DNA of 63,991 nucleotides, the filler included, from Licmophora abbreviata (Eukaryota): NCBI GenBank assembly GCA_900291995.1. It is 40 parts of 40 records of this genome, joined end to end, with 100 filler letters (N's around TTAATTAATTAA, not from the genome) between each part and the next. Parts side by side here need not be neighbours in the genome. Positions count along the whole stretch, not along the records: positions 37,869 to 39,352 come from OLMU01006557.1; 39 more parts are not named here. One strand, given 5' to 3'. The notes under the pieces are model-generated. The model saw only the letters and a program-made list of their open reading frames with translations, was not told the DNA's origin and ran no database searches. Positions within the stretch are counted from its first letter, which is position 1; each line of letters starts with the position of its first letter. Both the position numbers and the translations under genes were made by a program. Below are positions 5,096 through 62,755 of this stretch, piece after piece.

Positions 5096-6686
5096 AGACT
5101 TAAGAGTGTATGGACCTATCAAGTCTACACATAAGCGTTCCCAGGGTTCAGCTTCTGCTTCCTTTTCCGGTAGTTTGCCATATTTCGTGTAGGATCGTTT
5201 CGATTTCTGACACGTGGCACACGTTGAGCACTCTGCGTGCACGTCCGCGCGTAAATTTTTCCACCAGAAATGTTGTCTGATAGATTGTTCCGTGCGATTC
5301 TCGCCCGGGTGACACAGAATTGTATGATACCAGTTGACTGTGCGTTTCTGCAGGGAATTCGGAATCACGATTTTTCCCTGGTATGTTATGAGCTCAGACG
5401 ACGTCTTGCCGCCTCCACGAAAAGCCGTGAGAGCATAATTGGTGTTTGTGCCCGATTTGATGCGACGGAGAAGATCGGGGTCTTTGTCCTGAGCACGAGC
5501 AATAGATGAGAACCGCAAGGGGAAAGCATCTTTAGGAAGGTCGGAGTCGTCCAGACCAAAAAGTTCGCTCAGGGAATGGACATCCTGAGGAATAGGCTTG
5601 GGTGCCAAGTCGAGTCGACTGAGTGCGTCAGCGACGACGTTGTGTTCACCAGCAAGATGAACCAATTCGGGTCCATACTCTTCGAGGATGAGACGCCAAC
5701 GCATTACACGTTCGGTATTAAAGTTTTTATAAGTAAGATTCTTATGATCAGTGAATACTTTGATCTTCTGACCAAGGAATATGTTGCGGAACTCTTTCAG
5801 AGTTTCGACAATGGCCAAGAGCTCGCGCTCAGTGGTCGTATATCTGGTTTGAGCTGGATTCAGCTTGCGAGAGTAGAAGGCAATTGGTTTCCCATCTTGG
5901 GAGATGACTGCCCCAAGCTGTGTATTGCTTGCATCGGTGTGGATGTCAAAACGCTTGTTAAAATCTGGAAACGCGAGAAGCGTTTCGCGACTCACTATTT
6001 TCTTAGTGGTCTCAAAGGCTTTTTGTTCTGTTTCTGTCCATCGCCATTTGGCTTTGGAGGATGTAAGCGCAGTCAGTGGCGCTAGGACTTCGGATCGTCT
6101 GATCCACATGTCGCGGTAGTAGTTGACAAGTCCAATGAAGCTGCGAAGCTGCTTCTTGGTTTGCGGCGGTGCGATATTGTGAATCGCCTCCACTTTTTTT
6201 GTCATCGGTTGAATCCCACTTCGTGTGATCCAGTACCCTAAGTATTCGAGTTCGGAGCGTCCGAAAAACGATTTGGTTGCGTTAACTTTCAGTCCCGCAT
6301 TTGATAAGCGTTGGAGAACTCGATCGAGTTTCTCTAAATGTCTTCATATGTTGAAGTTGTCAAAACTAGAAGGTCATCAAGATATGTCCTAACAAATTCA
6401 AGCCCAACCATGAGCTCAGACATTTTCTCCTGAAATATGTCGGGACTGTTACATAAACCCATTGGGAGTCGTTGATATTCATATTTACCCCACGGCAGTA
6501 CAATCGTACACAGCCGTTTAGAAAAGGGAGTAAGTTCAATATGATAATAACCCATATTCAGGTCTAAAGAGGTTGCATACTGAAACCCTTCGAGTTTGAG
6601 TAATAAATCTTGTATTTTTGGTATTGGATATGGTTTTCGTTTTATCCTTTTATTCAGTTCTCTAAAATCAGAGATGAACCGAACCG
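5096..6686 (-). mobile_element. Ty3/Gypsy pol fragment (RT, RNase H, integrase Zn finger) with a 1-nt frameshift near 6337
   Basis: LDLNMGYYHI, LPMGL, YLDD, TDAS...GAVI, ERELLAI, NVVADALSR, H-H-C-C integrase motif; Gypsy domain order. Confidence 0.95.
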
Positions 6687-16823: not shown

Positions 16824-18371
16824 GAGACGAAGAATCGGCCGAACTGTCGTTCGCGGGCCATCAGGAAGCGGTGCGCGGAACGAGGGATTGCGCTGCCACT
16901 AGATGCGAATGGCAACTCGCGCTGCCTGCCCTACCACATTGTAGGGCAGTGCAATGAAAATTGTGGCAACAAAGCAGATCACCGCCACGACCACAGGGAG
17001 GAAGAGCAGGCCTCCCTGTTGGCGTGGTGTGATACCAACTGGCATCCTGAATAGGATGCCGGCAATGGCAGAGCGTTCGGGGGCGCTCGCCAAGAGCCAT
17101 TTTTCTCGCTGTCGACGACCTCGACAGCACCGCCACCCCCGCAGGCGGAGTCCCATAGTAGTAGTCAGCAACGTCCCCGTCCAGTCAAGCGCCGGGCGGT
17201 GGACATTGCTAGAACAGTTCATGTTAAGAATGATAAACTAGGTAAGAGTATACACCTAGATTTAGCGCTTCTGCATCGGCACGGTCTCACTACGCTTCTA
17301 CGCCTGCGACAGGGAGCTGGTGACTGGGGCAATCTACGCGCGGTGCGTCACCATCCGGCGCACCGCCTCTTGAGACACTACAGCGCTCATGGTGTCCCGG
17401 TCACCCTTGCCGACGCTCCCTGGTCGTACGGCGAGAAGATATCAAGCATCACTCGCGGGCCCCACAAGTCCGCCTACGAGCATTTGGAGTTCCTTCGGGA
17501 TGACATGGCAGACATGGTAACCAAAGGGTTCTGGGTGGTCCTCCCTTTTGCGGCAGTCCAGCACGAGCCAGGCTTGCGCATCAGTCCAATTGGGGTGGTA
17601 CCGCAGTCGGGGCGTCGATCTCGCCCGATCGTTGACTACACGTACTCCGGCGTGAATGACGTGACCCAACCCAACGCTCCCATGGAAGCGATGCAGTTTG
17701 GGCGGGCGCTCGATCGGATGCTGAGACGAATACTGCTGGCGGACCCGGCCAAGGGCCAGGTCCACCTCATGAAAGTGGACCTAGCCGATGGGTTCTACCG
17801 GATGCACCTCAGCCCCCGTAGTGCGCCTACCCTCGCTGTGTCCTTTCCAAGTCTCCCTGGTGAGCCGCCTCTCGTGGCTATCCCGACCAGACTTCCCATG
17901 GGCTGGAAGTTATCGCCGCCTTTGTTCTGTGCCGCTACAGAAACCATAGCGGACGTTACCAACCTGCAACTGCTTCGCCACGTTACCGCGTTGCCACACA
18001 CGCTCGATGACATCGCATCCAGTCCACCGCTCCCACCGCGTCCATCTTCGCCCGTGGATACCAACGTTGCCGTGCCAGTCCCCACTATCGCCGACCCTCA
18101 TCTGAACCCGGGCCGACGCCGGCGGCTGGCCTACGTTGACATCTACATGGACGACTTTTTGGGAGCAGTGCAAGGATCACCCGCCGCTCAGCAAAACCTG
18201 CGGCGTCTATTAATGCACAACATCGACAGCGTCTTCCGCCCTCTCCAAGCCCAAGATCCTCCAGCTCGTAAGGAACCCATCTCGGTCAAGAAGTTAAAAC
18301 AAGGCGATGCCGCCTGGTCCACCCAAAAGGAGGTGTTAGGCTGGCTCATAGACACTCACGCTATGACAGTA
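16824..18371 (+). mobile_element. DIRS-order (tyrosine recombinase) retrotransposon fragment A: gag end (stop 17052-17054) and RT
   Basis: gag C-x2-Y-H..C-x3-C-x5-H finger; RISPIGVVPQ, KVDLADGFY, LPMGW..SP, YMDD, LGW.ID. Confidence 0.9.
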
Positions 18372-21762: not shown

Positions 21763-22071
21763 TGTTGGAGATAGTGTCACAGGAGTCCGATCGGTCGACG
21801 ACAGACGTGCGAACAAGGTTGAGGTTGGCGCGAAGAAGATCCGGAGCAGCTTGCGTTCGTATGCACACGTCGTCAGTTGTGGTTCTTCGAATGAGACGAA
21901 AATGCACGAAAAGCGAGTTTCGTGGCCGTCTCATTCTCTGGAAATAATCCCATCGTAGGATTGAGTTTGTATTTACTCTCTCGTTACGGATCGTTGTATA
22001 GATACCATCACTGAGCGTCATCCGCGGGCTAAGGGTCCACGGGTCGTGATCAGGATTTATTCAGCCTAACA
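21763..22071 (+). mobile_element. Putative 5' LTR (TGTTGG...CTAACA, about 309 bp) of Copia-like element A
   Basis: TG...CA ends with imperfect terminal inverted repeat; contig starts at the boundary; upstream of gag. Confidence 0.65.
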
Positions 22072-22122
22072 TTATTTCCAGAGAAAAAGGTTTTTCTGTC
22101 GTCTCTCTTGTGGACACGGTAT

Positions 22123-22470
22123 ATGACGAACGACATCGACGACCTGCTCAGACAGTTAGAAGTTCTACGCCTTGAAGAGACGAGGATCATCCGACGTATC
22201 GTGCAGGAGAGGGAAATCGTCGGGGATCGCGTCGGAGGAACGGGAACAGGAGCACGTCCAAGGACGAGGGACGGCGTGAACGCTTTCCAAATCGGCGACC
22301 GGGTGCGGATTACCAATCGCGTGAGAAACGCCATCGGTGTACCCACGTCGAACCCAGGCGACGCTACCGGGGTAGTGACGCGCATCACGGGACAACGCGT
22401 TCACCTCAGGACAGATCGCGGGAACGTGACGAACAGAGCGCCACACAATCTCACCCGGACGGATGAGTGA
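22123..22470 (+). CDS. Extra 115-aa ORF upstream of gag with a coiled coil and KOW/SH3-like domain
   Basis: FQIGDRVRITN...TGVVTRIT..RVHLRTD.G; stop overlaps the gag start (ATGAGTGA). Confidence 0.65.
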   Translation: MTNDIDDLLRQLEVLRLEETRIIRRIVQEREIVGDRVGGTGTGARPRTRDGVNAFQIGDRVRITNRVRNAIGVPTSNPGDATGVVTRITGQRVHLRTDRGNVTNRAPHNLTRTDE

Positions 22471-23305
22471 GCCAAACGACGGTGCGAGCACCGGAGCCAG
22501 CCGGCCGAGTGAAGGCCGCGGCGGACGAGGGGGCCGAGGTGCACCCCGGCGAGGCGGGGGACGCGGTGGCACAGGTAGTGGGCGTCCCTATGGAGGAAAC
22601 CGAGGATCGGGACCGGTGACGCCGGCGACCACCTTCAAGGGGAACACAACAGGTATGAACGGGCACGTGTTCCAAGTCTTCGGTGAGCAGACCGACCCCC
22701 AACAATTCCAACGTACCACCGACATGTTGAAGGAGTATTCGGCCAAAGAGCAGTCCTTCCCAGGAGACATCGCAGGTTTCTTTGTTGACCTTGAGAAGCC
22801 AACCATCGCCGAGCCAGCGGACCTGCCAGAAGAGGAGACCAACCGGCTTAAGGTCCTGATCTTCGAAAAAGCGGTCGCCTCTTACTGTCGACGGGTTGAT
22901 CAGCTCGACAGCAACATGAAGGCACTGTATGCAATCGCCTGGGGACAGTGTAGCGAGGCTATGCAGTCAAAGCTGATGGGTATCAGTGGATATGAGGCCA
23001 GGAGCAGGGAGCAAGATCTATCATGGCTACTCAAGGAGATCAAGGGCATCACCAGCAACTTCGAGAGTCAGCGCTACATCTTCGTCGGAATTGACGAGGC
23101 CAAGACGGCCCTCTTCTCGTACGTCCAAGGACCACACGAGACAAACGCAGCCTACTTCAAAAGCTTCAGGTCGAAGGTTGAAGTGCTCGAACACTACGGT
23201 GGATCGTTCGGACATGACCCGGCCCTCCTAGCCAGCATCAGGGACAAGGCAGGCGCACCAACGGATGAGGATGCGATCCTCAAGGCGGCGCGCGACCAGG
23301 CACTA
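22463..23305 (+). mobile_element. gag of diatom Copia (CoDi)-like LTR retrotransposon A, 3' truncated
   Basis: RGG-rich N-terminus, FKG...GHVF, WGQCSEAMQSKL, Q...E.NAAY...F. Confidence 0.75.
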
Positions 23306-28293: not shown

Positions 28294-29796
28294 CGGTGAT
28301 GATGCACGATTGTGTCAAGTGTTTCATCCCGTAGAAGAAAAAATATCGGGTGGTGCGATCGACAAACATCAACGTGTAACGTACACCACCAATCGCAGTA
28401 ACGTCACCATAGCCAATGTCCATATGGACAACATCCAAAAATTTGTTGGGACGGGGCACAGCAGTCGTATTACGACAGTCCTTCGTCTTGTTGGCCAATT
28501 TACCAATTTCCAAAGGAGTTTCGGCCCCAGAAATGACTTGAACTGACCCACTACCTGTTTCCTCAAGGCTCGACCATTGCTTTAGGGTTCGAAAACCCAA
28601 GTACTGATGGAGTTGTTGACCCGTAAGGCGACGGTGTGCGGTCGTCGTCGAAGAGGGTCGGTAGTATGGCATGGGCATGAGACGGTTATCGGAAGGTGAA
28701 GAGGTAGCAGGCGGCGATGTCGACTCATCACGCACTGGCGACTGGGATTCCTCAACAGACGCGGAATCCGTTGTCGAATCGACCGGGTGCAGTGGGGAAT
28801 TCAACATTCGACGACGACGAGCCGCTCTGGTCTCCATTTGAGGGCTGTTGACGGACCCGGTGACCATATTGGAAGACATGGTAGAGGTCGTGGTATCAAA
28901 GTTTGTAACCGTAGAATCCGGATCTGGCGAAGGCTTTGGGAACTTGTTCTCGGATGGGATCGTAGATGATACATCCACATAATCAAACTCATGTAGGGGA
29001 ATTGAAGTTGGTGATGTCACACGTTCAGTTGGTAGTAGACAATCAGTAGAATCATCAACATCCAAACGGAAGGTAGGAAATGTCAAGATACAATTCGAAT
29101 TGTCAGCGATGAAGGAACATCCAGGTTGACGGCGATGTTTGCGAACCGAAAATAATGGAGAACGGAGACCAGGAACGTGAAGAGCATCATTGACTTGGAT
29201 GAGTCTAGATCCAGAACGGAAAACCCAAGTACCAATACCGCATACAGGCAACGTACCACCGGTGTCGGCTAGGTTCACATGGTGTGACCCAGCCGGAAAA
29301 GTTGTATAATCGCGGAACTCACGCCGTAGAGGCACCATGTGATGAGTTGATCCGCTGTCGACCACCACCGATGAATAGCCAGTTGTATCTGTCGTCGATG
29401 GAACCGAGACGGCATCAACGCATCCCAAACAAATACTAGACGTTGGAGGAGAAACGGAAGGAAATGAACCAACGGTGTTCTCGACTGAATCGACTAAAGT
29501 GGAGTTATCAACTGTAAGATCTATGTTCGCAGCATGGGTCCCAGGATCCTCCGTGTCGAGTCGTATGTCACTATCATCCGCATTCCATGGCTCAACTAAA
29601 TCCTCATCCTGTAAAGGAGAGAATCTGTTAGTGGAACAAGGTGATGTGACAGTAGACGGCGAACACGGAGACTCGCTGGGACGCTGTCGAGACACAGTCT
29701 TAGCAGGAGAGAGCCACTTGCCTTGGTGATCCTTCATGGGTGCACTATCCTCAGGAGGAGGAGACGTCGAAGTCGCCGACGCCACACGTGCAGCCC
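28294..29796 (-). mobile_element. Copia polyprotein fragment (protease to integrase start)
   Basis: VVDSGSTHHM, LHVPGL..PLFSV, LH..LG, VHMDIGYG...Y.LMFVDR.TRY; protease-integrase order. Confidence 0.9.
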
Positions 29797-31497: not shown

Positions 31498-32997
31498 TGC
31501 TGCTTATACGCCAAGCGGGGTCGGGCAACGCCAGGTGCCAGAGAGGAACCCCTCAATGAACCCGGCATTCGCGCCGTTCTCTGCTCTGAATCTTCGGATT
31601 GTCGATGTGTTGAGCCGGGCCGGCTCAGGTAATCGCCCTCCCCGTCCCGCAGGCGGTTCAGAAGTGTGCCTCTCTTACCATGTCAAAGGGATGTGCAACT
31701 CGGACTGTCGCCGGCGCGCGGACCATCGGGTGCATACCGCCGAGGAGGACACCGCGCTTTTGGAGTGGTGCCAGCAGTGGTATGTGCCACCGCCGCCTTC
31801 CTAGGAGGGAGGCGGGAGGGGACTGGGCTTACCTATTGCTCAGCCTCCTCTGACGCCGCCCCCTGTACCGGCTCCGCCATCGACGCTCACGAATACACGA
31901 AAACGAAACCACGCATCGATGAAACAGGGCTCTCAGGAGGCAGAGATACCAATTAATTCTCTACGTAAGTACATGTTGCAGGACTCACACCTAATTTCTA
32001 GTCACGGCTGGAAAGGGTTCGTCCAGCAGCGTCAGGGGATCGGCGACATGGGGTCACTCAACATCGACCACCCAGCCAAGCATCTCCTACACCATCTCTC
32101 CGCCACGGGGGCACCAGTGCTCTTCACCACGCCTCCCTGGGATCCACATCGAATACACGCAGCCGCCCTACGCGGCCCCCATCACTCGGCCATTGAACAC
32201 GAAGAGTTCCTTCGTCAAGAAATGGTCGAGATGATACTACGAAACCAATGGGTGGTGCTACCGTTCGAGACGGTAAAGGCACTACCAGGGCTCCGACTCA
32301 GCCCCATCGGAGTTGTTCCACAGCGAGATCGTCGCCCACGGACGATTGTCGACTACACTTTCCACGGCGTCAACGACGAGACCGTCCCGTTAGCCCCAGC
32401 CGAAGCCATGCGCTTTGGGCAGGCTTTCCAGCGGCTCCTAGTTGACATTGTCAACGCCGATCCTAGGCATGGGCCAGTGCACCTATGCAAGATCGACATC
32501 TCCGACGGCTTCTACCGAATTAAGCTGCGAGCCGACGATATCCCGAAGTTGGGAGTGAGCTTTCCCTCAGAGGTGGCAGGCGAACATGTTGTGGCCTTCC
32601 CCCTTGTCTTACCTATGGGATGGGTGAGCTCACCACCTTACTTTTGTGCCGCTACGGAAACAGTAGCGGACGTCACCAATCGCCGTATCCAGCGGGGGTA
32701 CCGTCCGCCCTCCCATCCGTTGGACCGTCTAGCGGACTCACCGCCCGCCGAACCGCTACCTATGCCAGTGGCCGAGCACATAGCACCAACCGTCCCTCTC
32801 CCTTCAGAGCCAGCGCCTGCAACACGTAACAGGCGTCGCCCCCTGGGGAAGTTTGAAGTGTACATTGACGATTTTTGTGGCTTGGCGCAAGGCGGGCGCA
32901 AGCGCCGTCGGCGAGTACGGCGCACGCTTTTTCACACACTCGACCAAGTCTTCCGGCCTCTATCCCCGGGTGACCCGCCGACACGTCAGGAGCCTAT
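31498..32997 (+). mobile_element. DIRS-order retrotransposon fragment B: gag end (stop 31802-31804) and RT
   Basis: CLSYHVKGMCNSDCRRRADH finger; RLSPIGVVPQ, KIDISDGFY, LPMGWVSSP, YIDD; homologous to 16824-18371. Confidence 0.9.
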
Positions 32998-37868: not shown

Positions 37869-39089
37869 CCCATTGTCGCCTCCGTGTCCTGCGGCGTCGT
37901 CATCATCGCCTGTATGATCGCCCTGGTTGGAGCTTCCGCCGTCGCCGCTATTGCCACGAGCGCTCTGTGCTCTGCTTCCTGACCGGCCACCGCCGCGTCC
38001 GCCACCTCTGCCTCTGCCGCCTCGTCCACCGCGTCCACCGCCATTGTCTCGGTTCCGTTGTTCACCGTTATCCGAATAGAATGCGATACCGCTCTCGTCA
38101 TCATGGAGAGACGGACCTTTCGATCTTTCCGGGATAAAATTGACCAGATAATCGAATGCGGCGTTGAGGTCGGTGGGGAATTTGTTGTCGCCCAGTACGA
38201 AGTCATTCTCAAGGTGGCGCACAAGTCCATGGTACCTCTTAGGATCAGCATTGTTCAAAAACTTCACTGCCAGGTATCGTTGGCGTACCCATTCTTCGGC
38301 GGCAGTGCGCTCAGCTGCAGTTGGAGTTGCGGGGTTGGTTGCAATAGTTGCGAGGCGGTCGGTGATGCTGTCGCCTTGTAGTCCAATGTACGAGTGAAAG
38401 CTGTTCACTGTCCTAACAGCCTCCTTGAATTTCTCGAAATAGTCGTGGTCTGACATTTTTCCTTGACGGCAATTGACCAGATTGGAGTCCGCCTCGGTAC
38501 ATGTTTGAACGATGTACCGGCGGGTCTGTCGCTGCTGCATGCACAGTTGGATTATGCGAAGCAGTTTCATCACGTCTGAGGTGGCATCGACTGTGCCCCA
38601 GTCGGCATGGGCCTCAACGCGATTGCGGAGGGCTTGTGAACACTGTCCGAGGACCAGTGGGTACGCTCGACCGGATATTTTGTCTCGGGAGCGTCTTTGG
38701 TCGTCATAATGACGCCTGGAGTTTTTCCACAGCTCGAACTGTACGTTCGATGCGTTGTCTGCCGGAGGTGCTGGCTCAACCAAAGCTGGGAGCTCTAATG
38801 CAATCATCCCCGTGCGAAACTCACCGGCATTGTCGTATGATTTTCCGATGTACTCAGCAATCTCTCGGGTAGTGGTGGTGAATGTCTCTTTACCGGCGAC
38901 GACGTCGTATACGTGTCCCTTGAGGTCTTCGCACTTCCCTTGGAATCCCGATGAGATTGTGGATTTCTTGGAGTTCTTTTTCTTATTGCGGCGGCGTCCG
39001 CCGTCTCTATCTGAAGAGTCAGCGCTCGGCAAGTTCCTGCCAGACTCGTCGCCGGCGTTACTCGCCTCGCGATCAGATTCGCGAGACAT
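37869..39089 (-). mobile_element. gag of diatom Copia (CoDi)-like LTR retrotransposon B, 3' truncated
   Basis: FQG..EDLKGHVYD, VLGQCSQAL, FL..AD.KRY..L...LEN.F..G...FP; same gag family as 22463-23305. Confidence 0.8.
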
Positions 39090-39110
39090 TCTGCTTTTGT
39101 TGTTGGCAAA

Positions 39111-39352
39111 TGTTAGATCCACAAGTGCCCTCTGAGAGCCTCCACACCACTTGTGGTGATGGACTAGCAAACAGAGCAGCAAGGGCTATCAAACTCTTTC
39201 AGTTCTAATAGAGAGGTTTGCCAACAACAATGAGAGGTTCAGAGCCTCTCATTGCTGTTGGCCACCTTTACACGTACTACGCGCCTAGATGACTCAGCCA
39301 TTCCTCCGGCGTCTGACGCACGCACGGCATCAGCATATGACTTTGCTTCAAC
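39111..39352 (-). mobile_element. Putative 5' LTR of element B ((T)GTTGA...CTAACA, about 243 bp)
   Basis: Contig ends one base inside the TG terminus; same CTAACA 3' end as LTR A. Confidence 0.65.
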
Positions 39353-42603: not shown

Positions 42604-44070
42604 TTGGTTGGCTTACAGCGTCAAAATTGAGACAGCTTGCAATGAAGTGAAGAAGCCGTATCTGTATACGGAACGCACTACAACGCCTGCGACTGCATCG
42701 GATTCCGCCGATTTCGCCACCGCGTTGTACAAGAAACTTCCGTCGTTGGCACTGTCTTCCTTCATTGGTGATGATAAGACTTTCTACCAGTGTCACGGCA
42801 TCGAGATGTTCCAACGATTGGTGACTTTGTACGAACCTACGACATCGTTGGCCTTACAGAGTTTAGTGTCGGCCCTCATGACTATCAAGATGGCACCGGC
42901 CGAATCCTTCTCCGCCTACAAACTACGAATTGAACAGATGAATCAACGCCTTCGTTCGGTTGGTCAGGCGATTCCGGATCCCATGCTCATCCATGTGGCT
43001 CGACGTGGTTTGACGTCGGACTACAAGGACATGGTAACGCTGGCGGAGACTGGTACTCTTGTTTTCTCATCATTCTCGGAATTTGCTGATCGCTTCCAGG
43101 AATATGAGACAGGACGATCATCTGCAACTGGTCTTCCCGCCACTTCTACTGGTGTGTATGGATCGGCCAGGGCTGCTAATGGCTCCACGCCACCTGCAAC
43201 CTCCTCCAAGCCGTCGAATGAGCGTTCGTCCGATGCTACGTCGGATACAACGACCGCTTACGACTGGAAAGGGGCTGTGAACTTGTCTCTTCCTCAGGTC
43301 CAGACACTTCGGTCGAGCTTCGCGTGTCCATTGTGCCGAACCAACGATCATCGATTTGCTGAGTGCCCGGCTTTGAAGGCTTTCGACATCCGTCGAAAAC
43401 CCAAAATGCAGTCCGCGACGTCCAAGGAGTCGACAAAGAATGCCTCTACCAAGCCGTCTACCTCGGTGTCCCCCAAGGACGATAAGAAGATCACATGGGC
43501 TGCACGAGTGGCTTCGAGCACCATCTCTACGTCTCCTCCACTGGCTGAAACGACACTCAACAAGGATCACCAAGGCAAGTGGATATCTCCTGTAAAAACT
43601 GTATCATGCAATTTTCCCAGTGATTCTCCATGTTCGATGTCTTCCATCACATCATCTCGTTCCACTAACCGATTCTCTCCCCTACAGGATGAGGAATTGG
43701 TTGATATGGGGAATGAGAATGATAGTGATGTCCGACTAGACATGGAGGATCCTGGGATTTGTACTGCAGATACGGATTTTACAGTAGATAACCCCACTCT
43801 AGTGGACAATATTGGATATGTCATCCCGTCGTCTGCTCCTCCGGCTTCCAGTGTTTGCTTGGGTAGCATCGATGCAGTCTCGGTTCCGGCTACATCGACA
43901 CAGTTTTGTCCGTCGTCGATCGTGGTGGATAGTGGATCCACGCATCACATGGTTCCCCATCGTCGTGATTTTCGGGAGTACACCGCCTTCCCTGTGGACT
44001 CTCATCACGTGAAGTTGGCTGATCAGAGTGGTACGTTACCTGTTTGTGGTATTGGATCTTGGGTTTTCCG
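42604..44070 (+). mobile_element. Copia gag-protease fragment, same family as 28294-29796
   Basis: CCHC knuckle CPLCRTNDHRFAEC; shared DHQGKW.SP..NRFSPLQDE; VDSGSTHHM. Confidence 0.9.
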
Positions 44071-61312: not shown

Positions 61313-62755
61313 GGACGCGGCTACTTCGCGGATCATCACTTCTCTGCCTTCCTCGCCTCTCAACTTCCTGAGTCCATCTCTTTTGCCGCGCGTCACAACC
61401 CCGACCCGGACACCTTAACCTATGACCAAGCCATGCGCTCCCATGACTCCCACCTTTGGAAGAAGGCTTCTCAAGCTGAAATAGACTCTCTCGTCGCCAA
61501 AGGAACCTGGGTTGAAGTCCCCATCAGCGACGCCAAGACCAAGATCCTTCCCGGCACCTGGACCTACCGCCGCAAGCGAACCCCTGACGGCGAAGTGAAG
61601 AAGCACAAGGCACGCTACTGTGTTAGAGGCGATCTCCTTGACAACACAAACGAAGACTTCTACTCACCAGTCGTCGGCTGGCCCACCGTTCGTCTCTTCC
61701 TCACCCTCTCCCTCATCCTTGGCTGGACTACAATCTCCATCGACTTCACCAACGCCTTCGTCCAAGCCACGCTTGAACACCACGTCTGGATCCACCTTCC
61801 CCGTGGTTTCGTTTCATCTAAGGGGAAAGGCACTTGCCTACGGCTGGTCAAGTCACTATATGGCCATCCCGGTGCGCCCAAACTCTGGTACCTCCACCTT
61901 CGCAGAGCCATCTTCAACCTCGGCCTCACCCAAAGCCAAATCGATCCATGTCTCTTCTTCCGAGCCGATCTCATCATCGTCCTCTATGTAGACGATGCCG
62001 GTCTCGCCGCCCCCGACGCATCCATCATCGACAAGTTTATCCAGGACCTCCGTGACCAAGAATTCGACCTGACCAAGGAAGGCAGCTTTGCCGAGTTCCT
62101 AGGCATCAAGTTCACTAAACAAGATGACATGGAATTCAAGCTGACCCAGCGAGGACTCATCGACAAGGTCATCTCAGCCACCGGACTCGACAACTGCAAG
62201 CCAAACCTCCTTCCAAGCACCCAACTCGCCCTCGGTGCCGACCTGGAAGGACCCCCGATGAACGAAAGCTGGAGCTATTCGTCCGTCGTCGGCATGCTCT
62301 TGTATCTCTCCGGCAACAGCCGACCCGACATCGCATACGCGGTGAGCCAAGTCTGTCGCTTTTCTGCCTCCCCAAAACAGAGCCACGCCACAGCAGTCAA
62401 GACGATCGTTCGATACCTATCCGGCACCCGCGATGAAGGTACCATCATTCGTCCGACCGGAAAGCTGAACCTGGACCTCTTTGTCGACGCTGATTTCTGC
62501 TCACTTCATGGGCGCGAAGACTCACGTGATGTCAACTCTGCGCGTTCGCGCACGGGATACATCATCCTTTTGAGTGGAGTACCGCTTCTTTGGAAATCTC
62601 AGCTCCAAACTCACATTTCCCTTTCCACGCTTGAGGCTGAGTATTCCGCCTTGTCCTATTCCTTGAAAACACTCATCCCTCTCAAGCGCATCCTCGTTGA
62701 ACTCGTCACAGCTCTCAGCATCGATCAAGAAATCAGCTCATCGGTTCAAGCTCGA
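61313..62755 (+). mobile_element. Copia RT/RNase H fragment, open frame
   Basis: KHKARYCVRGD, IDFTNAFVQ, KSLYG, YVDD, FLG, SRPDIAYAV, FVDADF, LSTLEAEY. Confidence 0.96.

Follow-up and report, generated by a model that had tools for sequence, protein, structure and literature searches.

A diatom Ty1/copia-lineage LTR retrotransposon that probably primes its own reverse transcription

The 5' end of an LTR retrotransposon (element B) lies on the minus strand of the contig at 37869-39352, within the 63,991-base stretch of DNA that we analysed (the window). Read along that strand, the contig starts GTTGAAG and runs for 242 nt up to GGATCTAACA, with its end at 39111; the LTR terminus CTAACA occupies 39116-39111. 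Directly after it comes a predicted primer binding site (PBS) that is matched by a complementary arm inside the LTR, and the gag ATG (39089-39087) follows 7 nt past the PBS. Only one LTR copy of element B is present, because the finding is confined to this one contig. A second element (element A) sits on the plus strand of the contig at 21762-23305. The features of the two are as follows.

39111..39352, minus strand: 5' LTR of element B, 242 nt on the contig; its upstream end is the contig end.
39231..39235, minus strand: initiator-like TCTCA of element B, the predicted transcription start region, directly upstream of the 5' arm.
39217..39230, minus strand: 5' arm of element B, TTGTTGTTGGCAAA, the predicted self-primer and first 14 nt of the transcript; exact reverse complement of the PBS.
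39138..39168, minus strand: predicted R/U5 stem-loop of element B, seen when 39231 to 39082 is folded for minimum free energy (MFE); it lies within the loop that the primer/PBS duplex closes.
39097..39110, minus strand: predicted PBS of element B, TTTGCCAACAACAA, adjoining the LTR-terminal CA and lacking a TGG start.
37869..39089, minus strand: gag ORF of element B, 407 aa, open to the contig end; its C-terminal part is RGG-rich.
21763..22071, plus strand: 5' LTR of element A, starting TGTTGG and ending CTAACA.
21934..21948, plus strand: 5' arm of element A, TTCTCTGGAAATAAT, a predicted self-primer, directly after TCTCA at 21929-21933.
22071..22085, plus strand: PBS arm of element A, a 15-nt complement that includes the LTR-terminal A at 22071.
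22463..23305, plus strand: gag-like ORF of element A, open to the contig end.

The initial annotation had read this arrangement of element B from the minus strand, and on re-reading every one of its coordinates is correct: the 14-nt LTR/PBS complement is exact, abuts the LTR-terminal CA and comes right after TCTCA, and the gag ATG does lie 7 nt further on. The duplex is exactly 14 bp, because the bases flanking both arms are unpaired; and because the ATG is so close downstream, element B has no room for another PBS. The end of the LTR could be placed with the help of contigs from other sequencing projects. Those from the public runs X2 and X4 agree with the LTR down to 39111 and continue below it as two different, unrelated sequences; since they diverge exactly there, we set the LTR boundary at 39111. 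Other LTR copies thus end at the A of CTAACA, and the 14-mer therefore starts at the first internal base. A contig from run X1, whose RNA origin is only guessed and whose contigs do not carry molecule starts, covers the whole LTR of element B. The gag ORF has 44 homologues at E <= 1e-3, none of them with a Pfam family, and its own best Pfam result is a weak match to Retrotrans_gag (E 0.075).

Element A had been described as sharing the register of element B, down to the length of the complement. The geometry is indeed the same, but the length is not: the duplex of element A is 15 bp, inclusive of the LTR-terminal A. The two LTRs are, as had been stated, otherwise unalike (no significant similarity; best blastn E 4.1), whereas the two elements cannot be called unrelated, given a distant homology between the two gag ORFs (21.5% identity at E 3e-7, by tblastn with gag B). 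Element A also has an extra 115-codon ORF at 22123-22470 (plus strand), between the PBS and the gag-like ORF, the stop of which overlaps the gag ATG (22463) by 8 nt; a counterpart of this ORF is absent from element B.

The window itself is not a single locus. It joins about 40 contigs of 1.1-1.6 kb by spacers of the form N44-TTAATTAATTAA-N44, and because it is a concatenation, the neighbours of a contig in the window carry no meaning. Contig GC ranges from 26 to 68%. Among the high-GC contigs are bacterial ones (a GntR/UTRA regulator, a dihydroxy-acid dehydratase, a phage tail tube); others are eukaryotic and diatom-like (BEACH, WDR3/Utp12, Pkinase, DUF285), and several carry retroelement fragments. 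Apart from elements A and B there are six such fragments, at 5096-6343 (minus), 28295-29794 (minus), 42605-44068 (plus), 61313-62755 (plus), 17055-18371 (plus) and 31805-32995 (plus). One is of Ty3/gypsy type (RT_RNaseH and Integrase_H2C2), two are of copia type with Pol_BBD, one has RVT_2, and the remaining two are weak RVT_1 frames on high-GC contigs. LTR and PBS are absent from the contigs of all six fragments. ARAGORN found 0 tRNAs in the window.

We also obtained relatives of these elements from public assemblies. A gag-based pattern scan of metagenome contigs gave nine loci, six of them with sequence upstream of gag, and a pol-based scan of prokaryote-labelled assemblies added four further loci, one of which (L010) has a full 5' end; gag-based scans of genome contigs and of viral contigs, and a pol-based scan of viral contigs, returned no loci. 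Our set of evaluable 5' ends (n = 11) consists of elements A and B together with nine copies in eight loci (L001, which has two, and L002, L003, L004, L006, L007, L009 and L010). L005, L008, L011 and L013 lack upstream sequence and do not belong to the 11; L012, with an LTR of only 98 nt on its contig and a longest complement of 8 nt, was left out as not evaluable.

A perfect LTR/PBS complement of 11-17 nt forms the longest inverted repeat in each of the 11 evaluable 5' regions; the first base of its PBS arm is the LTR-terminal A or the one after it, and its two arms are spaced 74-122 nt apart. L010, having been found through pol, served as a test of prediction, and the complement is present there too. 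This shared geometry is in part inheritance, because the 11 elements are relatives; the arms themselves vary from element to element, each matching its own PBS. The 5' arms read:

Element B: TTGTTGTTGGCAAA.
L002: TTGTTGTTCGCAAA.
L001, upstream copy: TTGTTGTTTACGAAT.
L001, downstream copy: TTGTTGTTTATCTAAT.
L003: TTGTTGTCTAC, 15 nt, with one mismatch over the full arm.
L004: GTTGTTTACGA, of which only 11 nt pair.
Element A: TTCTCTGGAAATAAT.
L010: TTAATCTTCTAAGCT.
L006: CATAATTTAATTATTAT.
L007 and L009: CTTTTAATTAATAAT.

Two of these comparisons are between close relatives: the arm of element B differs from that of L002 by one G/C swap, which is mirrored in the PBS, and the two L001 copies, 93.6% identical overall, nevertheless carry a matched multi-base change in both arms. 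L006 has two LTRs of 360 nt that are 90.8% identical, both end in CAACA and diverge right after; its LTR end is thus confirmed by comparison of the 5' and 3' copies. None of the 11 PBS sites starts with TGG, so that by this feature none is of tRNA type. Immediately upstream of the arm stands TCA in 8/11 elements (TCTCA in six); in L006 and L004 the TCA is 1 nt and 2 nt further upstream, respectively, and L007 has CCA.

Some of the source assemblies have unusual layouts. L001 (1-8264) holds two elements head to tail with one shared LTR (unit 5344 bp), and L002 and L010 have identical ends of 141 nt, that is, they are circularly collapsed one-LTR assemblies, the collapse placing the LTR of L002 at its contig end; these layouts may be tandem arrays, one-LTR circles or effects of the assembly graph. 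The diatom-type copia elements L010-L013, and the proteins P0024/P0084, come from metagenome-assembled genomes labelled Gloeobacterales, Rhizobacter, Halothiobacillus and 'bacterium', which is most simply explained by eukaryotic contamination of the bins.

The initial annotation had held that perfect complements in the same register are unlikely to arise by chance, a judgement that is borne out both by the 11 related 5' ends and by shuffling. For element B, simple arithmetic for a fixed PBS against some 230 LTR positions gives 230 x 4^-14, or about 9e-7, and 0/1000 dinucleotide-preserving shuffles of the upstream LTR produced a 14-nt complement (the maximum was 11). The same procedure gave 15 nt in 0/1000 shuffles for element A; across the whole set, a match as long as that observed appeared in 0/1000 shuffles for ten copies and in 2/1000 for L004. 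We also scanned for inverted repeats contig by contig (40 contigs, about 60 kb), a repeat search of the whole window having given only palindromes of the N spacers. Repeats of at least 14 nt at 30-500 nt spacing number four (in contigs 14, 17, 24 and 30), and two of them are those of elements A and B. Another, at 27337-27619 in contig 17 (26% GC), is 19 nt long with a 245-nt gap. The last, at 48701-48771 in contig 30, is 15 nt long with a 41-nt gap, and was rejected as an LTR/PBS pair on inspection, its appearance being unlike one.

Another observation concerns the way in which these 5' regions are predicted to fold. With RNA input that began one base ahead of the arm and ended 15 nt beyond the PBS, the MFE fold has the arm/PBS duplex as its closing stem in 11/11 elements, with all of the arm pairs in ten and 9/11 pairs in L003; pairing is complete in element B (14/14) and in element A (15/15). 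For covariation we used the six alignable elements of the B group, aligned with MAFFT. RNAalifold predicts the duplex unprompted from these six, with both sides changed at 4/14 pairs; its consensus also contains a covarying U5 hairpin and a 5-bp hairpin formed from the LTR-terminal TGTTG...CAACA. In element B, the predicted stem-loop at 39138..39168 occupies the equivalent place of that U5 hairpin. Counting pairs directly, 88.2% of 85 duplex cells are paired, compared with 35-53% when the partner is slid by 1-3 columns; most of the unpaired cells come from a 1-nt insertion in the downstream L001 copy that MAFFT does not mirror, and from the degenerate ends of L004. Double changes occur in 8 duplex cells, and the covariation score was matched by 0/500 shuffles, a figure that is not a probability because the six sequences are relatives. 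The covariation check in homologues that had been proposed at the outset thus has a positive outcome: 11/11 have the complement, the arms differ yet pair, and both RNAalifold and pair counting show compensatory changes.

To what class do these elements belong? L002 encodes a single gag-pol frame of 1650 codons and L001 one of 1713 codons; gag B is 47% identical to the N-terminus of the former and 49% identical to the gag match in the latter. Both frames contain the Pfam family RVT_2 (L002 residues 1115-1344, E 2e-15; L001 residues 1181-1424, E 2e-14). The RT of L002 is only 21% identical to that of the RVT_2 contig in the window. Neither a protease nor an integrase was found by sequence in the L002/L001 polyprotein (Pfam at E <= 5; 0 matches in a PDB profile search). 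We therefore turn to a structural model of L002 residues 540-900, the 361 aa upstream of the RT: built with 22 homologues (pLDDT 77.8), it resembles a retroviral integrase, catalytic core plus C-terminal domain (Foldseek E 8e-8), and the PDB matches listed for it are all retroviral integrases or intasomes. Because RVT_2 is combined with an integrase fold upstream of the RT, the order is gag-(PR)-INT-RT-RH, that of Ty1/copia; on this modelled fold, L002 and L001 are members of Ty1/copia (Pseudoviridae). Membership of Tf1/sushi (Ty3/gypsy) is ruled out by the RVT_2 RT and by an integrase that lies upstream, not downstream, of RT-RNase H. The assignment of element B to Ty1/copia rests on gag homology, because only gag lies on its contig.

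The RT-RNase H search scored 7999 candidates, of which 2256 proteins matched at E <= 1e-20; among matches that carry an organism name, the best belong to the diatoms Nitzschia inconspicua and Cylindrotheca closterium (59-62% identity) and are annotated as Ty1/copia-type RT. The protein-atlas neighbours of RT and gag are diatom clusters, which we take as a lead only. Downstream of gag there is a protease-like motif (alignment columns ~505-515), LLLDSCS in most relatives and LILDSGS in L002; a retropepsin in which Cys replaces the Gly normally found in D-S/T-G would be out of the ordinary.

Where the transcript would begin is indicated by the motif that precedes the arm. A published diatom initiator-like consensus is TCAH(+1)W, in which +1 is the base after TCA; it was derived in one paper, mostly by inspection and motif counting (PMC4686930). 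Wherever TCA adjoins the arm (8/11), the base after it is the first base of the arm, in agreement with TCAH(+1)W as described there (PMC4686930). The initial annotation had put +1 on the A of TCA (39231), which is probably one base early, as this consensus would put it on the first arm base (PMC4686930). Its central proposal, that the transcript's 5' end is complementary to the PBS, is strengthened by the 11/11 homologues, by covariation and by the LTR end at 39111, with the start itself deduced from the initiator-like motif.

Taking this sequence evidence together, we consider it likely that element B is a diatom Ty1/copia-lineage LTR retrotransposon that primes its own reverse transcription as Tf1 does, and not by means of a host tRNA. 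Transcription would start in the LTR at the initiator-like TCTCA, at about 39230/39231. The first 14 nt of the RNA would then fold back, across a structured R-U5 of some 106 nt, onto the 14 nt after the LTR end and pair with them. By analogy to Tf1, the element's RNase H would cut the RNA at the 3' end of the duplex; the freed 3'-OH, opposite the first PBS base, would be extended through U5 and R to yield minus-strand strong-stop DNA. In all of the elements the arm's 3' end does face the first PBS base, the orientation needed for extension into U5. Finally, plus-strand synthesis would copy the primer, such that the PBS is rewritten from the 5' arm in each cycle. Such rewriting would be the reason why primer and PBS drift between subfamilies and yet match perfectly, and copying of the primer into a new PBS would account for matched multi-base differences between near-identical copies.

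The competing explanation that fares best, although we judge it unlikely, is that the duplex is a conserved long-range RNA stem with some other role (packaging, dimerisation, control of gag translation, 5'-end protection) and that the element uses another primer. Retroelements are known to employ long-range structures at their 5' ends. The entire 5' UTR is enclosed by the duplex, which in element B stands 7 nt before the gag ATG and could gate translation there, and a transcription start at the arm is a prediction from a motif. On the other hand, a primer must anneal directly 3' of U5, where this arm is the only candidate, with neither TGG nor a tRNA-like site, and almost no room is left before gag. 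An arm whose 3' end is opposite the first PBS base in all of the elements has the geometry of priming, and its position right after an initiator-like TCA in 8/11 also argues for a primer at the transcript's 5' end rather than for a stem of different purpose.

There is far less in favour of a PBS that binds a host RNA (half of a tRNA, the primer type of copia, Osser and Bianca, or some other small RNA), with an incidental copy in the LTR. Half-tRNA priming does exist in Ty1/copia lineages, according to a section of PMC6317226, but a host primer would keep the PBS constant and need no LTR copy. What we find instead is at least 8 different PBS sequences among close and distant relatives, each mirrored perfectly in its own LTR; the L001 copies (~94% identical), with their matched change of several bases in both arms, speak against a host primer too, and we regard this possibility as very improbable. 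As for the complement being a chance match or an assembly artefact, which might be suspected from a window that is a patchwork of short contigs, from the circular collapse of L002 and L010 with their 141-nt end overlaps and from the tandem join in L001, we give it next to no credence: shuffles do not reach the observed length (0/1000), 11 copies from independent assemblies share the architecture, the distance between the arms, about 100 nt, is one that a single read or a read pair can span, and the sequence of element B is reproduced by contigs from other studies' runs.

Self-priming by element B, if we are right, has some wider consequences. Self-priming has so far been demonstrated only in the Tf1/sushi branch of Ty3/gypsy, and in Ty1/copia it has been predicted for one plant lineage. 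A self-priming LTR retrotransposon in a superfamily and a host group for which, as far as we found, the mechanism has no description is a conclusion that we consider well supported; with the diatom copia case, the mechanism would extend to a third supergroup of eukaryotes. In diatoms, copia elements make up a large share of the genome, as stated in a passage of Maumus et al. 2009 (PMC2806351). We lean slightly towards a broader proposition, namely that a large Ty1/copia clade, abundant in diatoms, generally replicates by self-priming and that each of its subfamilies has a private primer/PBS pair that is rewritten in each cycle. If that is true, these elements would be freed from host tRNAs, each lineage having a priming 'barcode' of its own; they would be the first case in stramenopiles and, outside plants, the first in copia, and would add weight to the idea, raised in PMC3601003, that hairpin self-priming is ancient in LTR retrotransposons. 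The model predicts a transcription start at TCA(+1), and a capped primer of 14-17 nt on strong-stop cDNA. In practical terms, these LTR elements will be mis-scored by annotation pipelines in which a tRNA-type PBS is mandatory, and matched primer/PBS pairs could be used as subfamily markers.

How does this compare with known systems? The CoDi elements described in parts of Maumus et al. 2009 (PMC2806351) are, like ours, Ty1/copia retrotransposons of diatoms, and the present elements and CoDi are probably of the same broad group. Primer binding sites are not discussed in the main text of that CoDi-defining paper, where 'PBS' occurs solely as the name of a buffer (PMC2806351), and a search of a library of open-access full texts turned up no account of self-priming for diatom or CoDi elements.

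A different solution is described for the fungal copia element GalEa, in sections of Donnart et al. 2017 (PMC5445492): a 'Conserved Hairpin Site', a palindromic 9-bp site that includes the LTR-terminal A, takes the place of the PBS. That site is a local palindrome plus a hairpin, and its authors saw no sequence complementary to it in the LTR (PMC5445492). The likeness to our elements, on this partial account, is that of a Ty1/copia element without a tRNA-type PBS but with a conserved, structure-forming sequence that includes the LTR-terminal A. A site of GalEa type is ruled out here: the PBS arms are not palindromic, and have their perfect partner about 100 nt upstream in the LTR.

Self-priming was proposed for the plant Ty1/copia families Houba and Osr-1, and predicted computationally for the plant TAR lineage, in passages of Neumann et al. 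2019 (PMC6317226). The operational rule for a self-primer in that paper is an LTR complement of at least 10 bp that starts 0-5 bp after the LTR, and by this rule 11/11 of our elements have a predicted self-primer (PMC6317226). The TAR lineage, so described, shares with the present elements both the Ty1/copia superfamily and the predicted mechanism; its hosts are land plants, whereas ours are stramenopile algae.

The Tf1/sushi elements are Ty3/gypsy chromoviruses, whereas the present elements are Ty1/copia, have diatom hosts and are known here from sequence alone. The Tf1 primer/PBS duplex is 11 nt long, as compared with 14-17 bp here. Tf1 is further described, in part of PMC10085805, as requiring a 'pretzel' of three duplexes; the flanking inter-strand duplexes of that pretzel were not recovered in the RNAalifold consensus of our six elements. 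For Tf1 and Tf2 of Schizosaccharomyces pombe, in the Tf1/sushi group, self-priming was shown by Levin 1995, 1996 and Lin & Levin 1997 (cited in a passage of PMC10085805), and portions of two papers (PMC10085805, PMC5445492) describe how the 5' end of the Tf1 mRNA acts as a self-primer, by pairing with a PBS that closely follows the 5' LTR. The parallels to that system, as those portions describe it, are these: in our elements too, the PBS comes directly after the 5' LTR and is complementary to the element's own predicted transcript start and not to a tRNA, the duplex closes a structured R-U5, and the 3' end of the predicted primer faces the U5/PBS junction.
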